Shown here one piece after another: positions 6,040-57,755 of a DNA stretch of 64,000 nt. The position numbers and the translations under genes are program-made. The notes beneath the pieces are model-generated. The model worked only from the letters and a program-made list of their open reading frames with translations, did no database searches and was not told where the DNA came from. The stretch comes from an uncultured Gammaproteobacteria bacterium (lineage in GTDB: Bacteria > Patescibacteriota > Microgenomatia > CAYQLK01): NCBI GenBank assembly GCA_964404855.1, contig CAYOLO010000001.1, positions 222,894 to 286,893 of the forward strand, written 5' to 3'. Numbering within the stretch: the stretch's first letter is position 1; each line of letters opens with the position of its first letter.

Positions 6040-6650
6040 TCTTGACAATCCAAAACGTGTTTTTAGAGGAAAACACGAAAAGTCGAGGAGAGGTTTTTGG
6101 TTTGAGTTCCAACAACGAGCACATAACAATCGGAGAGGCACAGTTGACGAACATGTTGACGAGCACCGTGCATACCCTTGAGGAGTTGGCCGATATGGCT
6201 GATTCACCAAGGGCGGCGGATACCTATCGGGCATTCGCTAGTGCCGAGTGTCTCATGATGGTCGTAACCTCATCCAAGAATGTGGGCGAAGCCGCCGTCT
6301 GCGTTCCCCATTCCGGGCAGTCTGAAAGCCCCAGCGTGACTGTCGTGAAGCACCCCCGCTTCACCATCCCTGCGTCTGACTTGTTTCAGGTGATCTCGCC
6401 CGAAATGGCAAGCCGTCGCAGTCGCGAATCGCTGGCCATGAAGAGCACGCCGGTTAATCCGAAGTACTCGACGAACCATCAGGTCTTGCGGTTGCAACAG
6501 GAGAATGTTGCGAAGGTCGCAAGGCTTATGGCTGTTCTGACAGGGAAGCCGATCGAGGTCCGCTTCCAGGAAGCTGGTGGGCGCAACTTCCCTTACTTGG
6601 ACGAAGTGGTTCATCCTTAACCGGATTACGCGCCTTTAATTGGAACTGTG
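6040..6650 (+). other. GC-rich, ORF-poor island: a candidate large structured ncRNA or a foreign, pseudogenised fragment
   Basis: GC content rises sharply above both flanks. The only long frame (5991..6620) translates to a protein with no family resemblance and overlaps antisense ORFs rich in Arg, Pro and Gly. There are many local hairpins, for example a 7-bp stem at 6345-6364. A + strand intrinsic terminator follows. Confidence 0.25.
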
Positions 6651-6804
6651 AGGTATTTTTGGGCTTAGCACCCCTAGCTTCTTTAGTTTTGTTTGAGATG
6701 GAGAAATTTCATCACAGACAAACTTAGCGAAGCGTCTGTTTTTTTGCAGAGCTAGCCTCCTCACAATTACTTTTTAAGGCTTGTGGTTTGGTTGTTGTGT
6801 GAGT

Positions 6805-17118: not shown

Positions 17119-17410
17119 GGTTATATTTTTCTTTTCGAGAAACAAGGTTTTTAAACTATTTTTTTAATTACATTCTTTTTTCAATCTACTTTCTTGGACG
17201 CAATTTTGGATGTTTGCTTTTTGCTAAAAGCGAACTCTGCGCAACCAAAGTTGCTTCGACCCGAGAGATTTCTTTCTTTCACTTTTTGCTCGCTCTTTTG
17301 CTAAAACAAAATCTGTGCCCACTCAAAAAAAGAGATCCAAGAAAACAGATTGAGGGATATGGGAGACAGAAAGAGATCAACAAAAGGAAAGTTTGGAGTA
17401 TTAAAAGATA

Positions 17411-17440
17411 AAAAAGAGCCCTCCTTTTTAGGGGAGGGCG
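17411..17440 (-). terminator. Intrinsic terminator: CCCTCC/GGAGGG hairpin plus U-tract on the minus strand (family member 1 of 3)
   Basis: GCCCTCC (17418-17424) pairs with GGGAGGGC, preceded on the + strand by an A-run, which is a T-run on the minus strand. It sits directly downstream of the 17457..17681 minus gene. Confidence 0.6.
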
Positions 17441-17456
17441 TGGGGTGTGAGGAGTG

Positions 17457-17681
17457 TTATTCCTCTTCGTCTTCTTTTTTGATCTTGACGATTCCCAGAA
17501 GGGAGATCAAGAAGAGGACGCCGTTGATGACGGCCGCAGTCACGAAGACGTAGCCGAACAGGCTCCAGAGATCTTGAGAGCTGGTTTCCGCTGCACTGTC
17601 CTGCGCAATGTCGATGAGAAAGAACGCAAGTACAGTGAGGGCCGTGTTGACGGCCAAAATTACGGGAACGATGTATTTCAA
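17457..17681 (-). CDS. Small two-TM membrane protein with an acidic C-terminus, GC-rich relative to its surroundings
   Basis: The 74-aa ORF has two hydrophobic helices and a higher GC than its neighbours, with the conserved terminator directly downstream. Confidence 0.45.
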   Translation of the reverse strand: MKYIVPVILAVNTALTVLAFFLIDIAQDSAAETSSQDLWSLFGYVFVTAAVINGVLFLISLLGIVKIKKEDEEE

Positions 17682-17828
17682 AGGACTTTACTCTCCTGCG
17701 GGGATAGGCGAGTGTTGCAGATGAAAAGTATTTCTACAACAGTACTATTATACCATATTTAGGCCTATAGTTCAATAATTTATTGTAATGTTTTTGGTTA
17801 AAAAACCAAAATTGTTTAGAATAGAGTA

Positions 17829-23863: not shown

Positions 23864-25330
23864 TTACAGGTTTAGCTGTTTTCTCCAGTTGGCGACGATT
23901 GTGCCTGTTTTGGTTTTGGCGATGCCAGTGTAGAGCGTTGGGTCTTGCAGGACGAGGCGTTGCTTCGGGCTCATTCTGGCGATGTACGAAGCAAGTTCTG
24001 GGTCTTGGTTAAGAATGTCTTCCATTCCTTTGCCTTCACGAATCGCTTGCTGTGTTAGTTTGCGGACTTTTTCGTGCGCGTCTGGGTGACCGAGGAAGGC
24101 GAGGATGATCTGAAGTGGTTCGGCCAAAATCAGACCTTTTTGTAGGTTGAGATTGGCTGACATGTTGCCTTGGTCGACTTCGAGCTTGGCGATGATACGG
24201 CTGAGTCTCTTGGAGCTGACAACGAGGTAATTGACGCTTTCGCCGTAGGTTCGACCCGAGGCAGAGTTGGTCAAATCTCTTTGGTGCTCGCTGAGCTGGT
24301 CTAGGAAAACCGTGACAAGACGGCCAATGCTGGTTTTCCAGAGACTTTTCGCGTTCTCGAGGCCGATAGGGTTTCGTTTTTGCGGCATTATCGAAGAGCC
24401 GACCTGTTCTTCTTCGAATGGTTCTCCAACTTCGCCGATTTCGGTCCGTTGCAGGTGCCTGAGGCTGTCTGAAAGATCAGCAAGGATTCCGTGTGCGATG
24501 GTTATTTCGCACATCAGACGAATCATTGGCTCGGGCGGAGCGATTTGGGTCGAGTGCTCGGCGGGTTTAAGGCCGAGAATGAAGAGGATTTCACGTTCGA
24601 ATTCCTCAGGGTCATCGAAAAAGAGTGAGGAGGCATTGTAGGCTCCAACTGAGCCTGAGAACTTGCCTTCGAGTTCTTTGGCGAGACTTTCGAGCTTTTC
24701 AATCGATTGGCCAAGCCTAACGACGAAGCCTGCGACGAAGAATCCGAAGGTGAGGGGCGAAGCGTGTTGTCCGTGAGTTCGGCCGACCTCGACTGTTTCT
24801 GCTTCGCGAGAAGCAAGTTCAATCAAAAATCGCTCGAGTTTTTTTAGTTCAGGAATGACGACTTTTATTGTCACATCCCTAAAGCGCATGGCCGTGGCGG
24901 TGTCTCTGATGTCAAAAGAAGTAGCCGGCGTGTGAACGAACGGCTTATTTTTTTTGCTCAGACGGTTTCTAATCAGGTTGACGAGGGCACGAATATCGTG
25001 CTTAATTCGGTTTTCTTCCTGATAGATTTGGTGGGTTGTGATCTGTTTGGCGGCGCGTTCAACTTGCTCAACCGCAGAAGCTGGAGCCATGCCTCGTCTG
25101 TTGAGCACAGTGACGAGAGCAAGTTCAACCTGCAGAAGGTAGCCAGTGAAGGCGTTCTCGGAGAGGTATTTGGCAACATCGGAATCCCAGTACCGATAGT
25201 CGGCGGGGGAGATGCTGTCGTAGACATCACGAGTAAGAAAGCGCGGAAGTCTGACCATCCTTTTGTCCTTGTAACGTGCGAAATTTCCAAGCTCGCTTAT
25301 TAGCGAACTATAGGTTGGCAAGGTTAGCAT
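23864..25330 (-). CDS. purB: Adenylosuccinate lyase family protein (fumarate lyase superfamily), compositionally GC-rich
   Basis: It has the 'GSSIMPQKRNPI' fumarate-lyase signature and is 488 aa. GC and codon usage (GCC, CTC, CCG, ACG) differ clearly from the surroundings. Confidence 0.8.
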   Translation of the reverse strand: MLTLPTYSSLISELGNFARYKDKRMVRLPRFLTRDVYDSISPADYRYWDSDVAKYLSENAFTGYLLQVELALVTVLNRRGMAPASAVEQVERAAKQITTHQIYQEENRIKHDIRALVNLIRNRLSKKNKPFVHTPATSFDIRDTATAMRFRDVTIKVVIPELKKLERFLIELASREAETVEVGRTHGQHASPLTFGFFVAGFVVRLGQSIEKLESLAKELEGKFSGSVGAYNASSLFFDDPEEFEREILFILGLKPAEHSTQIAPPEPMIRLMCEITIAHGILADLSDSLRHLQRTEIGEVGEPFEEEQVGSSIMPQKRNPIGLENAKSLWKTSIGRLVTVFLDQLSEHQRDLTNSASGRTYGESVNYLVVSSKRLSRIIAKLEVDQGNMSANLNLQKGLILAEPLQIILAFLGHPDAHEKVRKLTQQAIREGKGMEDILNQDPELASYIARMSPKQRLVLQDPTLYTGIAKTKTGTIVANWRKQLNL

Positions 25331-32685: not shown

Positions 32686-32704
32686 TAAAAGTAAGGAAAA
32701 AATG

Positions 32705-32778
32705 TGGGCGCGCTTGGACTTGAACCAAGGACATCGACCTTATAAGAGTCGCGCTCTAACCAACTGAGCTACGCGCCC
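32705..32778 (-). tRNA. tRNA-Ile, anticodon UAU
   Basis: The reverse complement GGGCGCGTAGCTCAGTTGGTTAGAGCGCGACTCTTATAAGGTCGATGTCCTTGGTTCAAGTCCAAGCGCGCCCA folds as a cloverleaf with a 7-bp acceptor and a 5-bp T-stem. The anticodon loop is CTTATAA. CCA is not encoded. Confidence 0.8.
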
Positions 32779-33093: not shown

Positions 33094-33990
33094 TTAAAGC
33101 TCTTCGAGTTTAACTTTTTCCGAATTTTTCTTTGGTTCGATTAAACCAAGGTAGCGTTCAGTTGTTGATAGTCTTTTGTGTCCAGCAAGTTTGGAGATAA
33201 GTACAACAGATGTTCCTCTTGAAAGGTGGTGGTGTACCCAAGTGTGGCGTAAGTCGTTGACCTTGGCGTGGGCGATACCGGCTTTTTTGAAGTAACGATC
33301 GATTGCTGTACGGATGTTGCGAATAAGAAGAGGTTTGTTGTTTTTGGTAACAAACAAGTTGTCATCAGGTTTGGCTTCTTTGCGTTCTTTAAGATAGCGT
33401 TTAACTGCTTCTTCGGCAGCAGTATTTAGTGGAATTGTACGCTCAGTGTGGCCTTCAAATGGGCGAATATAGATTCTGCCTTCTTTTTTGCCTTCGGAAA
33501 GAAAAATATCTTCGATTCTGATTCTGGCGAGTTCTCCGATACGCATACCGGTTTGAAGCAAAAGTTCAATTACAGCAGAAATTCTTGCATCACTGCGAGC
33601 AGCATCACGAAGAGCGCGATACTCAAGCGGCGTGAGAACTCGAGGCTGTTTGGTTTCGAATTTGGGGTGTGCGACCATTGCCGAAGGGTCATCAGTGATT
33701 ATTTCTTCTATTTTTAGAAAACGGAAGAATGTTTTAGTTGAATTAAGCTTTCTTGAAACGCTTTTTGGAGTGTATCCTTCTTTGCCGAGCTTGGCTAAAA
33801 AGGCATTAATATCAGCTGTTGAGACTTCGTGAACATGGTTTTTTTGCAGTTCTTGTAGGAATGCTACAAGCTGCTCAATATCTTTACCGTAAGCTAGAAC
33901 CGTAGCGGATGCTCGGTTTTTACCTCGAAGGTGGTCAATAAATGTTTGATGGGCATTTTTAAGGGCAATTGGATCTGATTTTGCGGCCAT
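33094..33990 (-). CDS. Tyrosine site-specific recombinase (XerC/XerD-size phage-integrase family)
   Basis: The C-terminal catalytic region '…LRHTWVHHHLSRGTSVVLISKLAGHKRLSTTERY' carries the R, H-x-x-R and Y residues. At 298 aa it is XerC/D-like in size. It lies between tRNA loci. Confidence 0.8.
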   Translation of the reverse strand: MAAKSDPIALKNAHQTFIDHLRGKNRASATVLAYGKDIEQLVAFLQELQKNHVHEVSTADINAFLAKLGKEGYTPKSVSRKLNSTKTFFRFLKIEEIITDDPSAMVAHPKFETKQPRVLTPLEYRALRDAARSDARISAVIELLLQTGMRIGELARIRIEDIFLSEGKKEGRIYIRPFEGHTERTIPLNTAAEEAVKRYLKERKEAKPDDNLFVTKNNKPLLIRNIRTAIDRYFKKAGIAHAKVNDLRHTWVHHHLSRGTSVVLISKLAGHKRLSTTERYLGLIEPKKNSEKVKLEEL

Positions 33991-34550: not shown

Positions 34551-34622
34551 AGCGGTGTGGTGTACCGGGAACACGCCAGGCTCATAATCTGGAGATACGT
34601 AGTTCGACTCTACGCGCCGCAA
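34551..34622 (+). tRNA. tRNA with CAU anticodon (Met/Ile2-lysidine class), with an A1·A72 acceptor mismatch
   Basis: The cloverleaf has acceptor AGCGGTG / CGCCGCA, D-stem GTGT/ACAC, anticodon stem CCAGG/TCTGG with loop CTCATAA, and T-arm CGTAG-TTCGACT-CTACG. U8, A14, U33 and A58 are present. Confidence 0.6.
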
Positions 34623-34635
34623 CAAGTAAGGAAAA

Positions 34636-34891: not shown

Positions 34892-34892
34892 G

Positions 34893-34965
34893 TGGCGACG
34901 GTTGGGCTCGAACCAACGACCGCGGGTTTATGAATCCCGTGCTCTACCAACTGAGCTACGCCGCC
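34893..34965 (-). tRNA. tRNA with CAU anticodon (elongator Met or Ile2 class; G1-C72 paired)
   Basis: The reverse complement GGCGGCGTAGCTCAGTTGGTAGAGCACGGGATTCATAAACCCGCGGTCGTTGGTTCGAGCCCAACCGTCGCCA forms a cloverleaf with T-stem GTTGG/CCAAC and anticodon loop TTCATAA. Confidence 0.75.
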
Positions 34966-41455: not shown

Positions 41456-42502
41456 ATGCTAATTAGAAAACTTAAACTGGTTAACTTCCGTAGCTGGAAA
41501 AAGATTGAATTGGAGTTTAGTTCGGAAACTAATATTATCTGGGGACTTAATGCGTCAGGAAAGACAAATATTCTTGAGGCGATTGCGGTTGTTTCTTTGG
41601 GCAAAAATATTCGTGGTGAATATGAGTCAGAAGTTATTAGGCAAGGCAAGGAAGCAGGTATTGTTGAGGCAAGGGTTGAAAGAAATAGTGAGATTGTAAG
41701 GCTAAGATACTCCATTGGTAAAACAGAGTATGGTAGGGTAAGTAAAAAATTTGCTGTTAATGGAGTCGCAAAAACCAGAAATGCTTTTGTGGGTAATTTG
41801 GCGGTTGTTTATTTTGGACCAGAAGAGCTGGATTTGGTTGTTGGGTCACCAGGACAAAGAAGGAAGTTTTTGGATACTACTTTGTCGATTGCTAGCCGTG
41901 AATATGCCAAGAATCTTTTGGAATACGGCAAAGTGGTTAGGGTAAGAAACAGACTGCTTTTTCGGATTAGGGAAGGCCATTCAAAGCTGAATGAATTGAG
42001 TTTTTGGAATGAAAAAATGCTGGAATTTGGGGAGCAAATAGGAAAAGAACGTGAAGGGTTTTTTTTGTTTATTAATAATTTTGAAAATCCATCCAAAAAA
42101 GTTAATTGGGAGTACAGGCGTTCAGTTTTGGGCAGGCAGAAAATGGCAGATAATTTAAATCGCGAAATAGCGGCTGGTGTTACGTTGTCTGGTCCACACA
42201 GGGATGATTTTAAGTTTTTTGATGGGACTAGGAATTTGGCAAGTTATGGATCAAGGGGCGAACAAAGAATGGCAGTGTTGGCATTAAAAACAGCGGAAAT
42301 TGATTACTTGTCAAAAGTTTTTTCCAGCAAGCCGGTTTTGCTTTTGGATGATATTTTTTCTGAGCTGGACTTAGTAAATCAAGAAAAAGTGTTGGGTCTT
42401 ATAAAAAATCAACAGAGCATTATTACTTCGACAGAAAATCATAACGACCTTAATGGGTTGGAAAATGTGAAGGAGTTTCGAACTAAAGATTTGATTAATT
42501 AA
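41456..42502 (+). CDS. recF: DNA replication and repair protein RecF
   Basis: It has the N-terminal 'LKLVNFRSW…GLNASGKTNILEAI' Walker A and a C-terminal signature/Walker B '…LLLDDIFSELD'. Confidence 0.85.
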   Translation: MLIRKLKLVNFRSWKKIELEFSSETNIIWGLNASGKTNILEAIAVVSLGKNIRGEYESEVIRQGKEAGIVEARVERNSEIVRLRYSIGKTEYGRVSKKFAVNGVAKTRNAFVGNLAVVYFGPEELDLVVGSPGQRRKFLDTTLSIASREYAKNLLEYGKVVRVRNRLLFRIREGHSKLNELSFWNEKMLEFGEQIGKEREGFFLFINNFENPSKKVNWEYRRSVLGRQKMADNLNREIAAGVTLSGPHRDDFKFFDGTRNLASYGSRGEQRMAVLALKTAEIDYLSKVFSSKPVLLLDDIFSELDLVNQEKVLGLIKNQQSIITSTENHNDLNGLENVKEFRTKDLIN

Positions 42503-42703
42503 TAACCTTTTAAGTTAAAGAGATTATAGGTTCTCGCTCAAATTCGCAAAATAATTTGAGTCCCCCAAAATTTTAAGTGAGTGCTCGTTTTCTGGTGAAA
42601 ACTACACCTCGGTTTTGATTCTCAAAAACTCAGTTTGAGCTACAAGCCTTCTTTAATGTGAAACACGCAAAAAAGGAACACTCCTAACTCTCGCAAACTC
42701 AAG

Positions 42704-42731
42704 AAAAAACCCTCCTTTTGAGGGGAGGGTT
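42704..42731 (-). terminator. Intrinsic terminator: CCCTCC/GGAGGG hairpin family member 2
   Basis: The + strand reads AAAAAACCCTCCTTTTGAGGGGAGGGTT, directly downstream of the 42749..42997 minus gene. Confidence 0.6.
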
Positions 42732-42748
42732 GTGGTAAGCGATTAGCT

Positions 42749-42997
42749 TTAGACGGCTCGCGGTGGAAGGTCGATGAGGCCGATGAGGCAGGCCATTCCG
42801 AAGACCGAAAGAAGTATTGCTACTGCTCCGGTTCCGAATACGCCAAATGCCTCGTTGCGACCGAGAGAGAAAAACTCGATGGCTTGATGAGTTGGTTGAC
42901 TGTATGTCGGACGACTTTGTTCTTGGTGTGTACCGAGGGACATTAGTCCAAAGATAGCTCCAAAAACGAGGAAGAAGATTCCGATCGGGATTTCCAC
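42749..42997 (-). CDS. Small two-TM membrane protein, GC-rich
   Basis: An 82-aa ORF with the same architecture as the 17457..17681 gene and elevated GC. Confidence 0.45.
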   Translation of the reverse strand: MEIPIGIFFLVFGAIFGLMSLGTHQEQSRPTYSQPTHQAIEFFSLGRNEAFGVFGTGAVAILLSVFGMACLIGLIDLPPRAV

Positions 42998-43027
42998 GTG
43001 AGATTAAGTCTCCTTTTTGCCGAGGAA

Positions 43028-43510
43028 TTAGGCTTCGCTTGTGCGCATTGCCAGCTTGACTAGCAGGTAAACCCCCGAAAGGATAAGTCCTGCGTATAGC
43101 ATGAACGGATCTTCGTCCATGCTACTGATCATTGCGCCGAGGGTGGCAATTGCGACCATTCCTAAGATGTCTCCAAGGGAGATTCTCCAGAAAAGCCTAA
43201 TCGAGTCCATTTCGTAAGCGTTCACTATTACACCAAGCAGAAGCAAGGCGAAAAGCGGAACGGCGAGAATACAGAGAACGAGGGCGACTTCTTCGATTGC
43301 CAGAAAGTCCTTAAAGAAGTACCACGGCATGGCCGAAGCAAAGACTTTGAGGATAATTTCTGCGATTGAGGGGAAGCGTCTTGGGCACTGTTCGTCTGCT
43401 TTGCGAAACAGCTCTTGGATGTTGTTCCTAAAGAGAAAGATTAGGGCAGCTAAGGAGAGGATGACCCCTCCAAGGTTTTGGATGACCCAGAGAAACACGT
43501 AATAGGGCAA
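43028..43510 (-). CDS. Membrane protein (4-5 TM), hypothetical, GC-rich
   Basis: A 160-aa ORF, co-directional with the small membrane gene and separated from it by 30 nt. Confidence 0.5.
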   Translation of the reverse strand: MPYYVFLWVIQNLGGVILSLAALIFLFRNNIQELFRKADEQCPRRFPSIAEIILKVFASAMPWYFFKDFLAIEEVALVLCILAVPLFALLLLGVIVNAYEMDSIRLFWRISLGDILGMVAIATLGAMISSMDEDPFMLYAGLILSGVYLLVKLAMRTSEA

Positions 43511-43675
43511 CGCTCATTCCTTCTTTTTTGCGCGAGTTAAAGTACAGATCTTACCCACCTATTATATCACATTTTAAGCCTATAGTCAACTGATTTGAAG
43601 CTAAATTTTTGAATTTTAGAAAAGTTTTTATTCTGCGGGAATTGTGCGATAATATGAGTATAATTATAGGTAATT

Positions 43676-44740
43676 ATGATTCAATATCAGCCGAAATTTA
43701 CGATTAATAATCAGATTCTTACTAATATCGCCAATATTGTGGCGGCTAAAGAATTTATTGAAGATGCACCACTTATTCCTGCATGGGAAGCTAAGTTTAG
43801 GCGTGAGGCTATGGAGCGAACTGTTCATCATGGAACGCATTTGGAAGGCAATAAGTTGAATATGGAACAGGCCAAAGAAGTGCTCGATGGAAGGCAGATT
43901 TTGGCAAAACAGGATGATATTCAAGACATTATTAACTATCGGGAGGTTCTTAGTTATATCGATAGTGTGGCTAAAAAGGAAGGAAAATTGACTGAGGAAG
44001 TATTACTTAAAATTCATAGTTTAACGGTTGATAAGTTGTTGCCTGACGACCAAAAAGGGAAGTATCGTACTTTGCAGGTTTATGTGACGAACAGTCGAAC
44101 TGGAGAGGTGTCTTTTACACCACCAAAACCTGAAGAGGTGGCTGGTGAAATTAGATATTTTTTGGATTGGCTTAATTCAAAGGAATCGGAAAATATTCAT
44201 CCGACTCTAAAAGCCGGTGTGGTTCACTATAATTTGGCCAGAATTCATCCGTTTGTTGATGGTAATGGGAGAACTTCTAGGGCGTGTGCAACATTAGTTT
44301 TGTTCTTGTCTGGCTATGATATTAAAAAGTTTTTTGCGTTGGAAGAGTATTACGATATGGATGCAGCTAGTTACTACCAAGCTTTACAGGAAACAAGTAA
44401 TCAGATAGTTGTGAAAGAATCTGAGCGTGATTTGACTGGGTTTTTGGAATATTTTACGAAAGGTCTGGCGGTAGAGCTTATGCGTGTACGAGAAAGAGTT
44501 CAGCATCTCTCTAGTGATTTGAGGCTCAAAAAACGTGTGGGACAGTTGGCTCTGACTGAGAGACAGGCAAAGATTGTGGAATATATTCAATCGTATGGAA
44601 AAATTACAAACAGAGAGTGGAGATCTTTGTTGCCTGACTATTCTGACGATACGGTTTTGAGGGATTTGAAGGATTTGATTAAGAAAAAAATCATTAAGAA
44701 AAAAGGAATGACAAAGTCGGCTGCTTACGTGATGAAATAA
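43676..44740 (+). CDS. Fic-family protein (AMPylation fold) with C-terminal winged-helix domain
   Basis: It has the canonical Fic motif 'HPFVDGNGRTSRA' and a C-terminal HTH-like region. Confidence 0.85.
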   Translation: MIQYQPKFTINNQILTNIANIVAAKEFIEDAPLIPAWEAKFRREAMERTVHHGTHLEGNKLNMEQAKEVLDGRQILAKQDDIQDIINYREVLSYIDSVAKKEGKLTEEVLLKIHSLTVDKLLPDDQKGKYRTLQVYVTNSRTGEVSFTPPKPEEVAGEIRYFLDWLNSKESENIHPTLKAGVVHYNLARIHPFVDGNGRTSRACATLVLFLSGYDIKKFFALEEYYDMDAASYYQALQETSNQIVVKESERDLTGFLEYFTKGLAVELMRVRERVQHLSSDLRLKKRVGQLALTERQAKIVEYIQSYGKITNREWRSLLPDYSDDTVLRDLKDLIKKKIIKKKGMTKSAAYVMK

Positions 44741-44770
44741 AAAAAAGACCCTCCTTTTTAGGGGAGGGTG
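44741..44770 (-). terminator. Intrinsic terminator: CCCTCC/GGAGGG hairpin family member 3, between convergent genes
   Basis: The + strand reads AAAAAAGACCCTCCTTTTTAGGGGAGGGTG. The minus-strand reading gives a hairpin plus T-run. It is 5 nt after the fic stop. Confidence 0.6.
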
Positions 44771-44791: not shown

Positions 44792-45373
44792 CTAGCTTGG
44801 TGGGGCCAGATGTTCGATGAGGGCGGTGAACTCGCGAATTTGGCACTGAACCAGACCCGCTCTAAGGTGTTTGGCTAGGGCGTTTACAATTGCAGTGTCG
44901 AACCTTTGGGTGAGTTCGATTTTGGCGACATTACCAGTTGTGGTAATAGAAACCAGCCAATGATCGCCAGCGTTGCCGTGTTTGGTGAGTTCGATTCTCA
45001 GCTCAACTTGGTCAGTGTCAGCCTCTTGATATACAAGAGGGTTTGGTTCAGATAACTTGGCTGTGGTTTTGACGCTCCCTACTGAACCGATTGTTTTTAG
45101 GCCTTCGGTTATGGCAGGCAAAATGGTTTGGGTCAGGAGAATGAAGTGCGGATTTTGAGGGTCTGAGATTCGATGTTTTTCGGCTGTTCCGATCGAAGCA
45201 TCAGTGATATTGCCACAGAAGGCAAAGTGGTTGAGCGAATCGGTTTCGAATCTGACGTTTACACTTGTTCGGAGCATTGTGTTAGCGGTGACCACCTTTT
45301 TGATTAAAGTGCTGTTTTGGGCTTTGCGGATTGAGATTGTAAATATTTTGAGATTCAAATGCAAACAAAACAC
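44792..45373 (-). CDS. Hypothetical protein, GC-rich (start likely at an internal Met)
   Basis: A 193-aa ORF with higher GC than its neighbours and no recognised motif. Confidence 0.4.
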   Translation of the reverse strand: MFCLHLNLKIFTISIRKAQNSTLIKKVVTANTMLRTSVNVRFETDSLNHFAFCGNITDASIGTAEKHRISDPQNPHFILLTQTILPAITEGLKTIGSVGSVKTTAKLSEPNPLVYQEADTDQVELRIELTKHGNAGDHWLVSITTTGNVAKIELTQRFDTAIVNALAKHLRAGLVQCQIREFTALIEHLAPPS

Positions 45374-45582
45374 TTAAAAAGGTAAAAGAGTTACTCGTCA
45401 AAACTTTTCCAAAAACTGCCTCCGGCATTTTTGTCATCAGTTTTGGCTACGTCCTGCGCTTTAGGAGGCCTAAAGCTATAGAATAATCATATTTTATAAG
45501 ACTGTTTTTTTTAGCTTTTTGGATTAAGTGCTTGAATTAACAGTATTAACTGCGAGGTATAGATTTGAGTTAAAATTGTAGT

Positions 45583-51638: not shown

Positions 51639-54600
51639 GTGTTGTTTTATTATTTGGGGCAGTATATGGCTGCCTCAAAAAATGATTATCCAGTATATAG
51701 ATTGACGCTTAGTCGCAAGAGTAAGTTTGGCGGGGCGTTAAAGAAATTGGTCGTTTTGAATGTTTTGTCTTTGTTAATTTTTTCTTCACTTTTTGCCCCA
51801 CTTATACAATTTAATATTTTGAACTCTAGACCATTAGATGGGCTGTTTGAAGCTATGGCGGCCGAGCAAAGTTTTGACGATGAGTCTCCACAGACTGATA
51901 AAGAAATCGTTATTATCAGAGAGGTTTGTGGAATATCAGGTTCGGTTGAGGTGACTTTTGCGTGGAAAGAAATTGATAACGCTTCGAAATACAGTTTAGA
52001 GATTTCGAGAATGGCTGAATTTGACCCTGCATCGACATTAACAGCAGTAACTTCGTCACTGGAACACACAGTAACATTGGAGGCAGATGTAAGGTTTAGA
52101 GTTAGAGTGGTTGGCGAAGGTCAAAATGGCGAGACAAAATCGTCACTGGCTGCTACCTATTACAACACTGATTGTGCACAAGAAAAAGAGACAAATAGAT
52201 TGGCAGCTTATTCCAAAACGTTAAGTGAAAATATTGGAGCGGGTGGTAGTGGTGCAGTCGCTGGGGAAAAACTGATTGCTCAGTCTAGCTCAATGACTTG
52301 TACTATGAATCCCGATAATGTGTTTAGTATTAATGTAGGACCGTCGACGGTAGTTACTAATTTTAGTGTCAATATTAATAATCTTGATCAGGGTGAATTA
52401 TATGTTGGCGCAACTTATGTGGATGGTACGGTAAGGTTTTTTAAGCAACAGCCAAACGCGGAGCTAACTTTGTCGGGCAATGCCAGAATTCGTGCTGGAG
52501 CAGATCAGGGATATTATAATTCCTCGTCTCAGGGTGGAAATAAGACAATGTATTTTTCTATCTATACAGATGGGGGGCATGTAGCCCAACAGAATGCATA
52601 TACGCTTAGCGCTTTTTATGTTCAGACAGTTGTTAATGGTCAGCAAGTAGGAAGCAATAAACAGTGTAATGGTGCTTCAAGCGGTTTGGGTGGACTAGTA
52701 ATTCATACTGTAGCCAGTGCTACGCCAACACCAACACCAACAAGGACGCCAACACCAACAAGAACACCTACGCCTACGCCAACAACAACGGCTGCAACAC
52801 CTACACCAACAAGAACACCTACGCCTACGCCAACAACAACGGCTGCAACACCTACACCAACAACTCCAGTTAGTGCGATGACTTGTAAAATGAATCCTGA
52901 TACGACATTTAATTTGACAGTTGGATCATCTCCGGTTGAGCAGAATTTTAATATTACTGTTTCAAATCTTGAAAAAGGAGAGTTGTATGTTGGGGCTACA
53001 TATGTTGATGGGACTGTAAGATTTTTCAAACAACAGCCGAATGCAGAATTGTCGTTATCTGGCAACGCTAGGATTAAATCGTCATCTGATCAAGGATTTT
53101 ATAACTCTCCAAGTGCTGGAGGAAGTAAGACTTTTAACTTTTCAATCTCATTAGACTCTAATCATGTTGCACAGAGTAGGGCATATGAACTTAGCGCTTT
53201 TTATGTTCAGACAGTTGTTAATGGTCAGCAAGTAGGAAGCAATAAACAGTGTAATGGTGCTTCAAGCGGTTTGGGTGGAATGGTGATTAATACCCTTGCT
53301 GGACCAACTCCGACTCCGACACCAACACCGCCTTCAGTTGGTACTTTTTCGATTAGTTATTCTGGGGTGTCTTCAGTTGAATCATTAGATCGTGGTCAAA
53401 ACAAAACATTTAGTGTTATTTATAAAGATACAGGTGGTTGGGGAGGGAAACCTGTAGAGATTTATGTTAACGATAGTGCTTTGACGAGTAATAATACAGC
53501 TTCTTTGGACAACGGAAATGTCTATTTGTCTTTTGTTCAAAAAACGATTTATCCAACGACAACTCAACAGTCTTTGTCTTTTACATTGAGCGCGAACGAG
53601 TATGCGGCCGCAAAGGACTTTGTTTTTAAGTTACAGGGTTTATATGTCGCGTCTTCTCTAGTTCTACCGTCATCATCGTCAACTGGTTTTGCGGTATCGA
53701 ATCAGTTTACCGCTCGAGTTGCTGCCCCTGTTAGTCCAACACCTACTGCGACCAGCGTTCAAAACACGCCTACTCCTACAACTACGGTTCAAAACACGCC
53801 TACTCCTACTACCTTTGTTTCAAATATGGCCTGTGTGATGAATCCGGCTAGTGGGGTATTTAATATTCAGGCAAGTTCGACTCAACAGACTCTTTCGCCG
53901 TTTACAATAACGGCTAATAATTTGGACAGAGGAGAATTGTACATTGGAGTCAACTATGAGGAAGCAGGAGTGTACAAGTTTTTTAATTATGAACCGAACA
54001 ACACAATTATCTTATCGGATCAGCCTAATTTTTCTGCAACGATAAGATCGGAAGATACGGGTTACTACAACTCTCCAGGAGGTGGTTCAAAAACATTTAG
54101 GTTTAATATTATTCTGAGTGCAAATCATCCAGGTGCAACTCCAGCTTATCGTTTACCGGAAATCTATATTCAAACTGTAGATCGAAGCAGTGGAACAGCT
54201 CAGCAGATTGGTAGCAACAAGAACTGTACGACTAATGGTATTACCGTAAACACAATCGGTGCACCAACCCCAACAGCGACTAATGCACCGACTTCGACGC
54301 CGACTCCAACAGTCACTCCGTCAGCTAATATTGCCTGTTCGTTAAGTGTTACGGCTACTAATTTTGTTCGTGGAACCGCGGCAAGTAGTTTGGGAAATAT
54401 AGTGATGAGTGGAGGAGTAAGTGGAACAGCATATTATATTGGCTTAATTAGTGGAGTAAATAACACTCTTTTTGCAAATCAACCTGGAAATAAAATTGAA
54501 ATTGGAGATAAAGATTTTAATCCATTAAAAGTTTATCCACAGGCAACTACATTCTCTGGTTCTAGCGGTCAGACTGCAGTGTTTATTGATCCGTCAAATA

Positions 54601-57600
54601 CGGTTTTAAGTGGAAGTTACAGTTTTGAACTGGGCTTGTTTACACAATCAGCTGTTTTGGTTAAGAATTGTGGAAATCCTGTTACTCTGACTGTTTCGGA
54701 TGGGGGATCTAATCCGACACCACTAGGCAAAGTAACACTTGAAACATGTAGTAATGGCAAGGTTAACGCTACTTTGGACTGGTCGCTTTGGTCCTCGACA
54801 ATTGGATCAACTCCAACAAAATATATTTGGGAATATAATTATGGGGGATTAATTGGGACAGGAGAGAGTGGGTATACAACCAGTGAAAGTTTTTCAAGAA
54901 CAGCAAATATAACAGGGCTTACTTCTCAATCAGAAATTGCTTGGAGAGCTAAGGCGTATAACGGTACTACTTTGTTAGCAACCTCTCCGGTTTTTACTCA
55001 CACAATAATATATTGTGAGCCACCAGTAGCTACAGGAACGACTGGTGTAGGTGATTCAATAATGTTGGGAGCAAAGAGTACTTTGGAAGCAAATATTCCA
55101 GGAATTGATATTGATGCGGTTGTGAGTCGAGGGGCAGCAGCAGGAATTTCAGTATTACAAGCAAAACTGGATTCTGGAACCCTTGGAGCCAAAGTAATAG
55201 TTGGATTAGGAACTAATAATGGAATTACTGATTCTCAAATTGATCAAATTGCTTCAATAGTTGCGTCTCCGAGAAAACTTTTCTTGATTACTGTAAAAGT
55301 TCCTCAAGGCCATGAATCTTCATCAAACAACACGATTATAAATGGAGCCAGTAGGCATGGGGCTACATTAATTGATTGGTATTCGAATTCGATTAATCAT
55401 CCCGAATATTTTGCGTCTGACGGAATACATTTAACTGGCCAAGGTATTAGTGCTTATTCAAACCTAGTTTTGGCTGCATTAGGCTCAGCTCCAGTGACTA
55501 CACCACCAGGCGAGTTTACAGTTTTGAATAGAGTGTTTAATTGTGTTGATGCGAATAATATAAATATTGTTTTCACTTGGTCTCAGTCATCAGGAGCTGT
55601 CAGATATGATTTGTATTGGGAGAGGACTCCAAATGGTACGGCCTCGTTTGATATTAGAGACGAACAATATCTTGCTGGCTCAAGTACAACTCTTAGCCAT
55701 TCCAACTCAACATTTGCTCCGAACCAGAGACTTTGGTATGACGTAAAAGCCGTAAGTGCCAGCGGTGGAAGTGTTTGGTCCAAGAATGGTACATATTATG
55801 TCGACTTGCCAACTTGTTCATCTCCAACCGCAACGCCGACAAATACTCCAGTACCAACTGCAACAGCTACGCCAACGAAAACCCCAACAAATGTACCAAC
55901 CGCAACGCCGACAAATACTCCAGTACCAACGGCTACCCCAACTCCACAAATTGCTATGTCTTGCTCGATTAATCCAACATTGCTTGCATTAAAAACTGGC
56001 CAAATATTGCCATTTACAGTGACGGTAAATAATCTTGATCAAGGAGAATTGTATGTAGGTGCTTACTATTTTGACGATCCAAATGGACACTTCTTTAAGC
56101 TTCAAAGCGGAATAGTTACACTTAGTGACCAAGCCAGAATTGTTTCGGCTGATGCAAGTGCAGGGTATTATCAATCAGCTTCAGGTGGCGGATCGAGACA
56201 GTTTGCGTTTAAGATTGAGGCTGATGCTAATGGCCCAGTTGGTCAATATACTTTAAGAGAATTTTTTATTCAGACAGTTAGGAATGGACAGTTTATTCGA
56301 AATACAAATTGTGTAACTGGAGGAACTCAATTAGTTATTAATGTTAGTGCAGGCATAGTGCCAACAAATACTCCTACAAAAACTCCAACGCCAACCGCAA
56401 CGCCTCAACCTGGAACGCCCACAAATACTCCTGCAGTTAATACTCCTACACCAACCATAACGAGTACGCCTGGAAACTTTAAGCCAGTAATTAGTGATAC
56501 TTCTGCAAAATGTAGTTCAATTAGCAACGCAGAAATCTTAGTTAATTGGGGAGCTGTTAGTGGTATCGAGGGCTTTGGAATTGAAATGACGACTGCAGCG
56601 TTTAGCCCATCTGACTTTAGTTACTTTAGGTACCCATCAGATTGGAGCAATTTAACAAGTCTATATCAACAGACAAGAATTAGTGATTATGGTTTTATTT
56701 CGAATACAAATTATCAGATTAGGATAACGGCAATTAAATCTGATGGAACTCAATATCAATCCGATGTTCAAACTGTACAAACTGGTGACTGTGCGAAATT
56801 ATCAGCTGATGTCGGTGGCCTGAATGGTTCGGCGTCTAACAAGCTAGTGCCAATGACAATTGGTGGAGATGTTGTACCAAACGCCTTCGTGGCAGTTGCT
56901 TTGTATAACAACGGTTGGGAGAGGCCTGTTCAAATTGAGGTTAAGGGAGTTGGCGGGGTTTATCAGCCAATAACTGCTTCTGGTCAGGAAGTACAAATTG
57001 GTGCAGGAGTATTTGTTAAGGCTAAAGCGTCTGGAACACTTACTTCGCCGTTTGCAAAAAACGCACCTTCATATCGAGAGATATCTTATCGAACAGTGTA
57101 CTTTGATGCTTATGCAACGGCAGATGCGCAGGTTGGTAGCGATCCGATTTTTATGATTAGAATTAAAGATGGGGCTGTTTATTATGATGGTGCTAGTTAC
57201 GGGGCTGCAATTCCGATTGCGAAAAAAGCTACATATAATGGAACAAAAGAGTCGGGGTTTGAGTTTATGAAGGTATTGACTGGTGGAGCTAACGGAGGAG
57301 GGTGTAGAGGGTCGAGTTGTTACGAGGTGAATTACAATCCTCAAAGGGCAAAATTACTGGTAGGAATGTGGGGAACGGAATCTGGTTGGAGTACTGTGGG
57401 TACCAGTGGGTGTGACCAGTTTGGATGTCACTCAGAATCAATGTACTCATTCGGTGCAACCGATTGGGACAGATGGGGTGGCGAGACAGGGTTTTATGAT
57501 AGTAGTTTGCCGAATAGTGGAAGGGGTAATTTTGAGACAGAAACACGGGCTGTTGATAGGATGTTTACTCAATCGTTTAACGACCCTTCGTCAGGATCGT

Positions 57601-57755
57601 TCCGAATGTATGCGCCAACATATTTTGGCCCATGGAATTTAGGGGATGATAATCCAACATATGGTGGAAACTGGTGCACGCATCCATCAAATGGATATAG
57701 AGCTGCTTATAATACGGGACTACTTAACGACTTAGGGCCTAACTGTTACGATTAA
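51639..57755 (+). CDS. Giant (2038 aa) secreted/surface multidomain protein with Pro/Thr-rich linkers, repeated Cys-containing modules, FN3-like modules and an SGNH (GDSL) hydrolase domain
   Basis: It has an N-terminal TM/signal. PT linkers recur at about 52720-52870, 53290-53330, 53740-53820, 54250-54310, 55820-55940 and 56360-56470. Four paralogous modules of about 145 aa begin at about 52290, 52880, 53825 and 55960. The SGNH motifs are GDSIM, GLGTNNG and DGIHLT, at about 55040-55480. The C-terminal roughly 420 aa form a Cys/Trp/Gly-rich domain. Confidence 0.7.
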   Translation: MLFYYLGQYMAASKNDYPVYRLTLSRKSKFGGALKKLVVLNVLSLLIFSSLFAPLIQFNILNSRPLDGLFEAMAAEQSFDDESPQTDKEIVIIREVCGISGSVEVTFAWKEIDNASKYSLEISRMAEFDPASTLTAVTSSLEHTVTLEADVRFRVRVVGEGQNGETKSSLAATYYNTDCAQEKETNRLAAYSKTLSENIGAGGSGAVAGEKLIAQSSSMTCTMNPDNVFSINVGPSTVVTNFSVNINNLDQGELYVGATYVDGTVRFFKQQPNAELTLSGNARIRAGADQGYYNSSSQGGNKTMYFSIYTDGGHVAQQNAYTLSAFYVQTVVNGQQVGSNKQCNGASSGLGGLVIHTVASATPTPTPTRTPTPTRTPTPTPTTTAATPTPTRTPTPTPTTTAATPTPTTPVSAMTCKMNPDTTFNLTVGSSPVEQNFNITVSNLEKGELYVGATYVDGTVRFFKQQPNAELSLSGNARIKSSSDQGFYNSPSAGGSKTFNFSISLDSNHVAQSRAYELSAFYVQTVVNGQQVGSNKQCNGASSGLGGMVINTLAGPTPTPTPTPPSVGTFSISYSGVSSVESLDRGQNKTFSVIYKDTGGWGGKPVEIYVNDSALTSNNTASLDNGNVYLSFVQKTIYPTTTQQSLSFTLSANEYAAAKDFVFKLQGLYVASSLVLPSSSSTGFAVSNQFTARVAAPVSPTPTATSVQNTPTPTTTVQNTPTPTTFVSNMACVMNPASGVFNIQASSTQQTLSPFTITANNLDRGELYIGVNYEEAGVYKFFNYEPNNTIILSDQPNFSATIRSEDTGYYNSPGGGSKTFRFNIILSANHPGATPAYRLPEIYIQTVDRSSGTAQQIGSNKNCTTNGITVNTIGAPTPTATNAPTSTPTPTVTPSANIACSLSVTATNFVRGTAASSLGNIVMSGGVSGTAYYIGLISGVNNTLFANQPGNKIEIGDKDFNPLKVYPQATTFSGSSGQTAVFIDPSNTVLSGSYSFELGLFTQSAVLVKNCGNPVTLTVSDGGSNPTPLGKVTLETCSNGKVNATLDWSLWSSTIGSTPTKYIWEYNYGGLIGTGESGYTTSESFSRTANITGLTSQSEIAWRAKAYNGTTLLATSPVFTHTIIYCEPPVATGTTGVGDSIMLGAKSTLEANIPGIDIDAVVSRGAAAGISVLQAKLDSGTLGAKVIVGLGTNNGITDSQIDQIASIVASPRKLFLITVKVPQGHESSSNNTIINGASRHGATLIDWYSNSINHPEYFASDGIHLTGQGISAYSNLVLAALGSAPVTTPPGEFTVLNRVFNCVDANNINIVFTWSQSSGAVRYDLYWERTPNGTASFDIRDEQYLAGSSTTLSHSNSTFAPNQRLWYDVKAVSASGGSVWSKNGTYYVDLPTCSSPTATPTNTPVPTATATPTKTPTNVPTATPTNTPVPTATPTPQIAMSCSINPTLLALKTGQILPFTVTVNNLDQGELYVGAYYFDDPNGHFFKLQSGIVTLSDQARIVSADASAGYYQSASGGGSRQFAFKIEADANGPVGQYTLREFFIQTVRNGQFIRNTNCVTGGTQLVINVSAGIVPTNTPTKTPTPTATPQPGTPTNTPAVNTPTPTITSTPGNFKPVISDTSAKCSSISNAEILVNWGAVSGIEGFGIEMTTAAFSPSDFSYFRYPSDWSNLTSLYQQTRISDYGFISNTNYQIRITAIKSDGTQYQSDVQTVQTGDCAKLSADVGGLNGSASNKLVPMTIGGDVVPNAFVAVALYNNGWERPVQIEVKGVGGVYQPITASGQEVQIGAGVFVKAKASGTLTSPFAKNAPSYREISYRTVYFDAYATADAQVGSDPIFMIRIKDGAVYYDGASYGAAIPIAKKATYNGTKESGFEFMKVLTGGANGGGCRGSSCYEVNYNPQRAKLLVGMWGTESGWSTVGTSGCDQFGCHSESMYSFGATDWDRWGGETGFYDSSLPNSGRGNFETETRAVDRMFTQSFNDPSSGSFRMYAPTYFGPWNLGDDNPTYGGNWCTHPSNGYRAAYNTGLLNDLGPNCYD
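52285..53325 (+). repeat. Two tandem near-identical copies, about 450 bp each, of a protein module inside the giant gene. A third copy is at about 53823-54260 and a fourth at about 55957-56350.
   Basis: Long identical nucleotide runs are shared, for example 'agcgctttttatgttcagacagttgttaatggtcagcaagtaggaagcaataaacagtgtaatggtgcttcaagcggtttgggtgga' at about 52607-52696 and about 53195-53284. Confidence 0.7.
52758..52859 (+). repeat. Perfect 2 x 51-nt tandem repeat encoding the PT linker (RTPTPTPTTTAATPTPT x2)
   Basis: The unit 'acaagaacacctacgcctacgccaacaacaacggctgcaacacctacacca' occurs at 52758 and again at 52809. Confidence 0.75.

Follow-up and report, generated by a model that had tools for sequence, protein, structure and literature searches.

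The subject of this report is a small operon of membrane-protein genes in a 64,000-nucleotide stretch of DNA (positions 222,894 to 286,893 of contig CAYOLO010000001.1, assembly GCA_964404855.1), the whole of which is referred to here as the window. The operon is a self-contained two-gene unit on the minus strand at 42700-43589, flanked by recF (41456-42502, +) and a gene encoding a Fic protein (43676-44740, +). Its first open reading frame (ORF; 43028-43510, -) begins with TTG and encodes a protein of 160 amino acids (aa) with four to five transmembrane (TM) segments; the second (42749-42997, -) begins with GTG and encodes an 82-aa protein with two. By ORF and hydropathy analysis, both genes lie where a preliminary description of the locus had placed them. 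The interval given there for the unit, 42700-43510, covers the genes and their terminator but leaves out a promoter of their own at 43561-43589.

That promoter, on the minus strand, consists of TTGACT, a 17-nt spacer and TATAAT, with a TG upstream of the latter, and scores 11/12 plus TG in a consensus scan. Its hexamers, 17-nt spacing and extended -10 TG are those of a sigma-70-type promoter, and they are conserved in 8 orthologs. Inside it lies an invariant block, ACTATAGGCTTAAA (43573-43586, -). One element within the block, ACTATAGG, resembles part of the T7 core; a T7-like promoter was rejected, since the elements around the block (-35, TG and -10) are conserved. The promoter is followed by a 5' leader of about 50 nt (43511-43560, -) that contains the Shine-Dalgarno sequence GAAGGA and a conserved box, GTACTTTAAC (43536-43545, -), identified by aligning 8 orthologous leaders, with the consensus G[TC]AC[TAG]TTAA[ACG] among orthologs of the large gene. 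Although the sequence of the leader is conserved, no conserved base-pairing was found across the 8 aligned leaders, and a riboswitch-like leader was dropped as a candidate. A search of the window against Rfam, whose scope is known RNA families, returned three tRNAs only, with no known RNA family or antisense RNA gene detected.

Between the two ORFs is a spacer of 30 nt (42998-43027, -) with the Shine-Dalgarno sequence AAGGAG at 43010-43015. Since the spacer is short and carries this ribosome-binding sequence, the two genes are taken as a single transcription unit; among relatives, the spacer ranges from 3 to 32 nt. The unit closes with a hairpin, AACCCTCCCCTCAAAAGGAGGGTT, and a run of T (42700-42731, -). 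This predicted hairpin starts 17 nt past the stop codon, has an 8-pair stem (5 G-C) and an 8-nt loop followed by TTTTCTTG, and on the coding strand has the features of an intrinsic (Rho-independent) terminator. On its other side, the operon is divergent from fic and shares with it a control region of 165 bp.

The terminator and the promoter block both recur in the window. A 20-mer of the terminator, CCCTCCCCTNAAAAGGAGGG, occurs three times (17419, 42710 and 44749), always on the minus strand, where 0.01 occurrences would be expected by chance. Each copy lies 22-23 nt past the stop codon of a GC-rich minus-strand ORF, these being ORFs of 74, 82 and 161 aa, so that the terminator held in the preliminary description to be common to the 74-aa and 82-aa genes is indeed shared. 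The operon hairpin is copy 2 of this family; copy 1 lies at 17410-17441 (-), and copy 3 at 44740-44769 (-), beginning 8 nt beyond the fic stop codon. Wherever relatives were examined, the core of the terminator, TCCCC[TA]NAAAAGGAG, was found solely behind GC-rich ORFs of this kind, hereafter cassettes, and the stems carry compensatory changes (CCCTCC/GGAGGG, ACGCTCC/GGAGCGT and GGCCTCC/GGAGGCC). The 20-mer is also present in 96 viral contigs of IMG/VR (L097-L176), most of the examined ones sharing nearly the same flank, tccttggaccgaCCCTCCCCTAAAAAGGAGGGtttc. They seem to represent a single orthologous site in low-GC phages of an unrelated group, and in none of them is the 20-mer near a homolog of the cassette proteins. 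In view of these viral occurrences, the hairpin sequence alone is not treated as a marker of common origin.

The closest counterpart of the operon in the window is the cassette of the 74-aa gene (17457-17681, -), which has a TTG start, a GC content of 0.50 and a GC content at third codon positions (GC3) of 0.68. By hydropathy its product has the same plan of TM segment, polar loop and TM segment as the 82-aa protein, as had been proposed, and it ends in a charged tail, KIKKEDEEE. Compared with its ortholog in a related locus (related loci are designated by L numbers; here L020), the gene has 14/5/31 substitutions at the three codon positions. Its promoter (17747-17775, -), with TTGAAC, a spacer and TATAAT, is conserved in L020 and contains the same block as the operon promoter, here ACTATAGGCCTAAA at 17758-17771 (-). 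The shared part of the block, ACTATAGGnnTAAA, reaches from the 3' end of the -35 hexamer, which it overlaps, into the spacer. It is invariant in 11 promoter instances covering three genes: eight orthologs of the large gene (L010 and L071 included), the 74-aa gene in the window and in L020, and one extra cassette in L055. The block was found nowhere else in the window, and 72 matches to the promoter pattern in metagenomes were mostly chance or unrelated; the fetched contigs of the candidates that were checked contained no tRNA or Rfam RNA gene. The first genes of all cassettes begin with TTG.

The extra cassette in L055 shows how such units can vary between strains. L055 is otherwise near-identical and encodes an identical 74-aa protein, but it has an additional 592-bp unit (1296-1887 of that locus; compare window position 17772) between two copies of a 25-bp promoter core. 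The unit comprises a copy of the promoter, a GC-rich ORF of 120 aa with a TTG start and two TM segments, the terminator GGCCTCCCCAAAAAGGAGGCC and a short repeat element. The 120-aa protein has only a sub-threshold match to Phage_holin_3_6 (E = 0.034). The third terminator copy belongs to a soluble 161-aa ORFan (44792-45277, -; GC3 0.49), which has a promoter of a different type (45336-45365, -; TTTGCA, an 18-nt spacer and TACAAT) and, upstream, a box, GCACTTTAATC, that resembles the leader box of the large gene. Its start is called differently by different programs (161, 193 or 214 aa). The gene is present in the window, L005, L006, L007, L010, L012-L014, L016, L018 and L041, is partially covered in L015, and is absent from L001-L004, where fic abuts the ligase gene. 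As read from sequence, these units are a few modular cassettes packaged in one kind of regulatory shell, some of them fixed and others strain-variable.

An element of about 110 nt resembling a miniature inverted-repeat transposable element (MITE) was also observed in this neighborhood, at 45378-45490 (-). It comprises a 7-bp hairpin of variable sequence followed by the conserved RCAGGACGTAG...AAAACTGATGACAAAAATG...TTTTGRCGAGTAAC. Further copies are found in L005 (3079-3157), L071 (about 2120-2330, two copies) and L055 (about 1790-1887), and a degenerate 3' end lies at 42529-42541 of the window. At the site corresponding to 45378-45490 the element is missing in L014 despite 100% identical fic and 161-aa neighbors, and in other relatives it borders different cassettes.

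Turning to the operon proteins, hydropathy gives the 160-aa protein four clear TM segments and one weaker one, and its AlphaFold2 (AF2) secondary structure contains five long helices (predicted local distance difference test, pLDDT, 67; predicted template modeling score, pTM, 0.39; 10-sequence alignment). A model built from a 7-sequence alignment was unusable (pLDDT 51). The N-terminal MPY is kept in every ortholog, and the invariant polar or charged residues of the family, K55, E73, N97, E100, D114 and K152, lie within or at the ends of helices. In the 82-aa protein, hydropathy places TM segments at residues 3-21 and 57-75; its family has two motifs, one in the loop (FS[LM]GR[NQ]E) and one toward the C-terminus (G[LMF]ID[LI]P), and the 82-aa protein itself ends in DLPPRAV. 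A collection of 5.8 billion sequences contained 8 homologs of the 160-aa protein and 3 of the 82-aa protein, and a full hidden Markov model search of 1.84 billion cluster representatives returned 4 clusters only for the former. Scans of Pfam, PHROGs, NCBIfam and PADLOC found nothing significant for the 82-, 160- and 74-aa window proteins. With divergent orthologs, Pfam likewise gave nothing above threshold, and the weak matches disagreed between orthologs. Profile searches of PDB sequences with the operon proteins gave no match at E up to 1, and the BFVD structures contained no match for the membrane-pair proteins. Both families thus appear new but tiny, their relatives being confined to one narrow clade.

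Within that clade the operon is found at one place. In loci that cover the region, the slot between recF and fic holds the pair in L001-L019, L041 and L084, including the most distant, L010 and L011, and it lies in a syntenic block with the order FtsH, 5'-3' exonuclease, GT4 glycosyltransferase, mutM, recF, the pair, fic and ATP-dependent DNA ligase. The small gene is directly downstream of the large gene in every fetched covering locus but L071, in which the terminator comes right after the large gene and a tblastn search for the small gene was negative. The small protein therefore appears dispensable in at least one lineage. For the 160-aa gene, the pairwise ratio of nonsynonymous to synonymous substitution rates (dN/dS) is 0.08-0.18, except against L010, where it is 0.36-0.50 with dS saturated; for the 82-aa gene it is 0.21-0.48. 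Identity to L010 is 85% for Fic and 76% for RecF, compared with 27% for the large protein, 43% for the small protein and 44% for the 161-aa protein. The divergence of the pair follows the order of that of the flanking genes, but is faster. Judged by this conservation and these substitution patterns, both genes are real and encode fast-evolving integral membrane proteins under purifying selection.

The small gene is nevertheless easily overlooked. Public gene calls miss this 82-84-aa gene in seven loci (L001-L005, L010 and L041), among them L001 and L002 (at about 6474-6770 in their coordinates), L005 (2774-3022) and L010 (3822-4073), and in L001-L004 and L010 spurious antisense ORFs of 37, 48 and 60 aa are called in its place. 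Within the window, antisense ORFs of 102 aa opposite the 74-aa gene and of 46 and 57 aa opposite the pair were rejected because their length is not conserved and the pattern of third-position substitutions lies in the sense frame. A mosaic identity between strains seen in L014 and L017 may reflect recombination or assembly chimeras and was not used.

The composition of the pair is atypical. The two genes have a GC content of 0.49-0.51 and a GC3 of 0.49-0.60, whereas ordinary genes on both strands have a GC content of about 0.33-0.43 and a GC3 of 0.24-0.38, a range that includes the five other minus-strand genes. The fraction of NNC codons is 0.66 in the cassette genes compared with 0.43 in ordinary minus-strand and 0.18 in plus-strand genes, and C at fourfold sites is 0.39 compared with 0.28 and 0.07, respectively. 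Third-position C and G are about 0.07 and 0.24 in plus-strand genes and are mirrored in ordinary minus-strand genes. Two genes elsewhere in the window share the cassette-like codon regime. One encodes an adenylosuccinate lyase (23864-25330, -; GC 0.51, GC3 0.56), has a similar bias toward codons ending in C and a different terminator, and may be horizontally acquired. The other is a plus-strand ORFan of about 172 aa (6102-6620; GC 0.52, GC3 0.63) with no family match; a long ORF antisense to it (6270-6614) is probably a product of high GC alone.

A composition of this kind is found in genomic islands, and the preliminary description had called that of the pair foreign. If so, the GC-rich genes would have come from a donor of higher GC, be it a host bacterium, a phage or a plasmid, and would have kept the codon usage of that donor. 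The atypical codon usage speaks for this, as does the presence of the lyase gene and the ORFan in the same regime, and the shift looks like a general compositional one rather than classical translational selection. Of the foreign label, however, the atypical GC and GC3 stand and a recent acquisition does not. All relatives carry the pair in one slot, its divergence keeps to the order of that of its flanks, and patchiness and other signs of a recent island are lacking, the large gene being in every covering related locus and the small gene missing only from L071. There are no mobility genes at the borders of the pair, and no homologs outside the clade in the protein collections or in phage and plasmid records, so that no donor can be named. 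Furthermore, in eight genomes the GC3 of cassette genes is 0.50-0.73 compared with 0.27-0.47 for recF, fic and mutM, and the offset over the flanks within a genome is always +0.14 to +0.32, even though synonymous sites among the deeper lineages are saturated (dS from 1.4 to >2.7). Amelioration should have erased such an excess, and its persistence at dS >1.4 makes a recent foreign origin unlikely; an older entry, in the clade's common ancestor, is possible. Overall, the foreign-island explanation is regarded as quite unlikely, and the operon is lineage-specific and vertically inherited. The elevated GC3 looks maintained and not like the fading trace of a recent import. It could be due to biased gene conversion where cassettes are prone to recombination, to a local mutational regime or to selection, though the fourfold-site pattern argues against classical translational selection.

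Another question of origin concerns the resemblance among the small cassette proteins. According to one explanation, the 82-, 74- and 120-aa proteins are true paralogs that arose by duplication of whole units, after which the coding parts diverged past recognition and the shell was kept. The promoter, leader box, TTG starts and terminator held in common would fit such a history, as would the tandem arrangement with two promoter copies in L055, the plan of TM segment, loop and TM segment in all three proteins, and the very fast evolution that leaves orthologs at 27-43% identity while the flanks remain at 76-85%. No residual similarity is seen at the level of sequence or profile, however. With E allowed up to 100, BLASTP does not align the 82-aa protein with the 74-aa protein, and hhalign of the family profiles gives a probability of 0.1%. 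Each family has its own motifs, FSLGRNE and GLIDLPP in that of the 82-aa protein and a quite different pattern in that of the 74-aa protein, and the shell also surrounds a five-TM protein and a soluble protein, which argues that it hosts unrelated ORFs. Duplication is therefore possible but doubtful; it concerns origin, not function, and could coexist with the explanation favored below. Of the kinship that had been described between the two cassettes, what survives is the shared terminator, promoter block and use of TTG, while the paralogy of the proteins does not. That the small proteins fail to align with each other had been named in advance as grounds for abandoning the idea if they were also not conserved elsewhere, yet each of them is.

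The position of the operon next to fic raises the prospect of a joint module, in which the divergent Fic protein regulates the membrane operon or relies on it for an effector or an anchor, as might occur in a defense system of the SoFic type. The canonical HPFVDGNGRTSR motif is present in the Fic protein, as is a DeoR-like winged helix at its C-terminus (helix-turn-helix residues 296-342), and the PADLOC SoFic model covers the whole length of the protein (E = 7.8e-45). These features, the divergent orientation across the shared control region and the conservation of the adjacency in all loci are in favor of such a module. Since the entire neighborhood from FtsH to the ligase is syntenic, though, adjacency carries no specific signal. 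The same promoter block is found at the 74-aa and 120-aa genes, 25 kb away beside rpiB, and Fic diverges 3-5 times more slowly than the membrane pair. SoFic has moreover been described as a single-gene system. A functional link to Fic is accordingly considered improbable.

The preliminary description had suggested a holin-like or toxin-like pair. Under this explanation, the induced proteins would permeabilize the membrane for lysis, abortive infection or a role akin to that of a toxin-antitoxin system, and an operator-bearing promoter, weak starts and convergent read-through would otherwise keep the genes silent. The 82-aa and 74-aa proteins agree with class II holins in size and in their two TM segments, although the charged tail is present in the 74-aa protein only. 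The TTG of the first genes and the GTG of the small gene, a strong promoter with a conserved extra block, sibling cassettes that come and go between strains, and a neighbor that fits the SoFic defense model are likewise compatible with it. No match to a holin, toxin or defense family was found in Pfam, PHROGs or PADLOC, however, nor one among the BFVD structures, and the 82-, 160- and 74-aa proteins belong to no holin family in these searches. The search of phage and plasmid databases that had been proposed was carried out with both operon proteins; tblastn returned nothing from 50,697 records of phages and 72,556 of plasmids. The neighbors, recF, mutM, fic and DNA ligase, include no endolysin, spanin, prophage or antitoxin gene, and the genes of the pair are stably inherited under purifying selection in a core-genome slot outside any lysis cassette. 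To our knowledge, the five-TM topology of the 160-aa protein is unlike that of any described holin class. A holin or membrane-toxin function is thus judged unlikely, and a co-regulated small membrane complex is favored over it.

The favored explanation, to which a probability of about one half is assigned, is a vertically inherited two-gene operon that belongs to a regulon with a shared shell and produces a small membrane complex with an accessory role in the envelope. In this model, the strong sigma-70-type promoter at 43561-43589 would give a transcript of about 0.85 kb ending at the hairpin at 42700-42731 and encoding the 160-aa protein of four to five TM segments and, closely spaced downstream, the 82-aa protein of two. 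The shell consists of the ACTATAGGnnTAAA block between -35 and -10, the leader box, non-ATG starts and the TCCCC[TA]NAAAAGGAG hairpin, and it is common to a small set of head-on, GC-rich mini-cassettes: the operon, the 74-aa gene, the strain-variable 120-aa gene and, in part, the 161-aa ORFan. The block could be the binding site of one trans-acting regulator, with the cassettes as its regulon. The two proteins may assemble into a small membrane complex whose five-TM subunit carries the conserved charged and polar residues in or near the membrane, with the two-TM protein as a dispensable accessory subunit. Such a complex might serve an accessory envelope function, for example the handling of ions or small solutes or an interaction with the outside, and would cause neither lysis nor poisoning.

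Several observations weigh against this explanation. Complex formation is deduced from the operon structure only, and L071 does without the small gene. The promoter block could have been conserved through descent of the cassettes from one ancestor or as a contact with RNA polymerase instead of as an operator, and its central two bases vary, leaving no clean palindrome. The regulon is drawn from few cases, namely three known promoters of the type, and no further cassettes were found in an extra 8 kb of the genome. A toxic product would agree just as well with the non-ATG starts, the tight insulation and the small size and hydrophobicity of the proteins. The AF2 model of the 160-aa protein is of modest quality, and searches of the operon proteins by family, fold and context all came back without a match.

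A broader alternative, tentative and regarded as possible rather than probable, is that the cassettes represent an undescribed class of modular expression units. In these, a conserved shell would host unrelated, fast-evolving, GC3-rich genes for small envelope proteins, placed head-on between core genes. Recombination at the repeats of the shell, perhaps assisted by the MITE-like element, would let strains gain, lose or swap these units. On this view, the GC3 excess is what such recombination would leave behind through biased gene conversion, and the proteins would form a variable interface with host cells, phages or competitors.

The surroundings of the operon give some indication of its bearer. 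The window has a GC content of about 0.38 and a strong positive GC skew, and about 90% of its genes are on the plus strand. They include genes for SufB, SufS, an aCPSF1-like beta-CASP nuclease, an archaeal-type phosphoglucose/phosphomannose isomerase (PGI/PMI), an ATP-dependent DNA ligase and VirD4/VirB4-like proteins. From this gene content, the host is inferred to be a small-genome bacterium resembling the candidate phyla radiation (CPR; also called Patescibacteria). The species-representative genomes L006-L008 are titled 'uncultured Gammaproteobacteria bacterium' and, with a CPR/Patescibacteria-like gene content, are probably mislabeled. Also observed in the window are a tRNA-Ile(UAU) gene at 32704-32778 (-), which is unusual for bacteria, two tRNA-Met(CAU) genes (34551-34623 and 34892-34965), and an ORF of 2038 aa (51639-57755, +) with internal repeats of about 585 bp and periodic repeats of 12-18 nt at about 52.7-56.5 kb, whose product is probably a large surface protein.

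For annotation, the immediate consequence is that the 82-84-aa gene is real yet uncalled and that the 160-aa and 82-aa families deserve family status. CPR-like bacteria have many unexplained small membrane proteins, and here a few of them are linked by one promoter block and one terminator. The block and its handful of targets offer a testable handle on the control and exchange of genes for small membrane proteins. The GC3 excess, stable here in genes that are inherited vertically, is in turn a counter-example to reading atypical composition as recent horizontal transfer.

Among known systems, class II holins and pinholins (phage 21 S68) and holin-antiholin pairs are alike in having products of 65-95 aa with two TM segments, a charged tail (here in the 74-aa sibling) and apparently tight insulation. 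The operon differs from them in lacking a phage or lysis-cassette context, an endolysin, a dual-start motif and a match in PHROGs, Pfam or BFVD, in having a 160-aa five-TM partner, and in being vertically inherited in a core slot. The CidA/LrgA-CidB/LrgB systems are chromosomal two-gene operons outside a prophage that encode a small and a medium polytopic membrane protein, as does this one, but the gene order and sizes differ (LrgA about 120-150 aa with four TM segments; LrgB about 230 aa), and PF03788 and PF04172 gave no match to the operon proteins at E below 1. Type I toxins such as Hok, TisB and Fst resemble the cassettes in their small hydrophobic products and weak or non-ATG translation signals, and an antisense RNA could arise by convergent transcription of the plus-strand gene upstream. 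The known toxins are mostly below 60 aa with one TM segment, however, whereas here the products have 74-160 aa and two to five TM segments, with a polytopic 160-aa protein co-encoded; the small size and single TM segment of a type I toxin are not found, nor is an antisense RNA among known RNA families.

Integron cassettes and the 'minimal mobile elements' of the Neisseria type are also compact, strain-variable, single-ORF units at fixed sites bounded by repeats, which in the present case are the 25-bp promoter core. Unlike integron cassettes, each unit has its own promoter and terminator, with no attC-like site and no adjacent IntI; the sole gene of the Phage_integrase family in the window is XerC/D-like and lies 9 kb away (33094-33990). 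Unlike either kind of element, the main pair is fixed in all relatives. In model bacteria there are regulons of small membrane proteins, for example the stress-induced MgrB and AcrZ of E. coli, that are short, hydrophobic and often unannotated, have dedicated regulated promoters and act as accessory subunits of larger membrane proteins. The likeness of the operon to regulons of this type is by analogy only, with no homology to the operon proteins. The unit thus lacks what defines a holin, a type I toxin-antitoxin system, an integron cassette or a recent genomic island, and its unusual parts are the shared regulatory shell and the stable GC3 offset.

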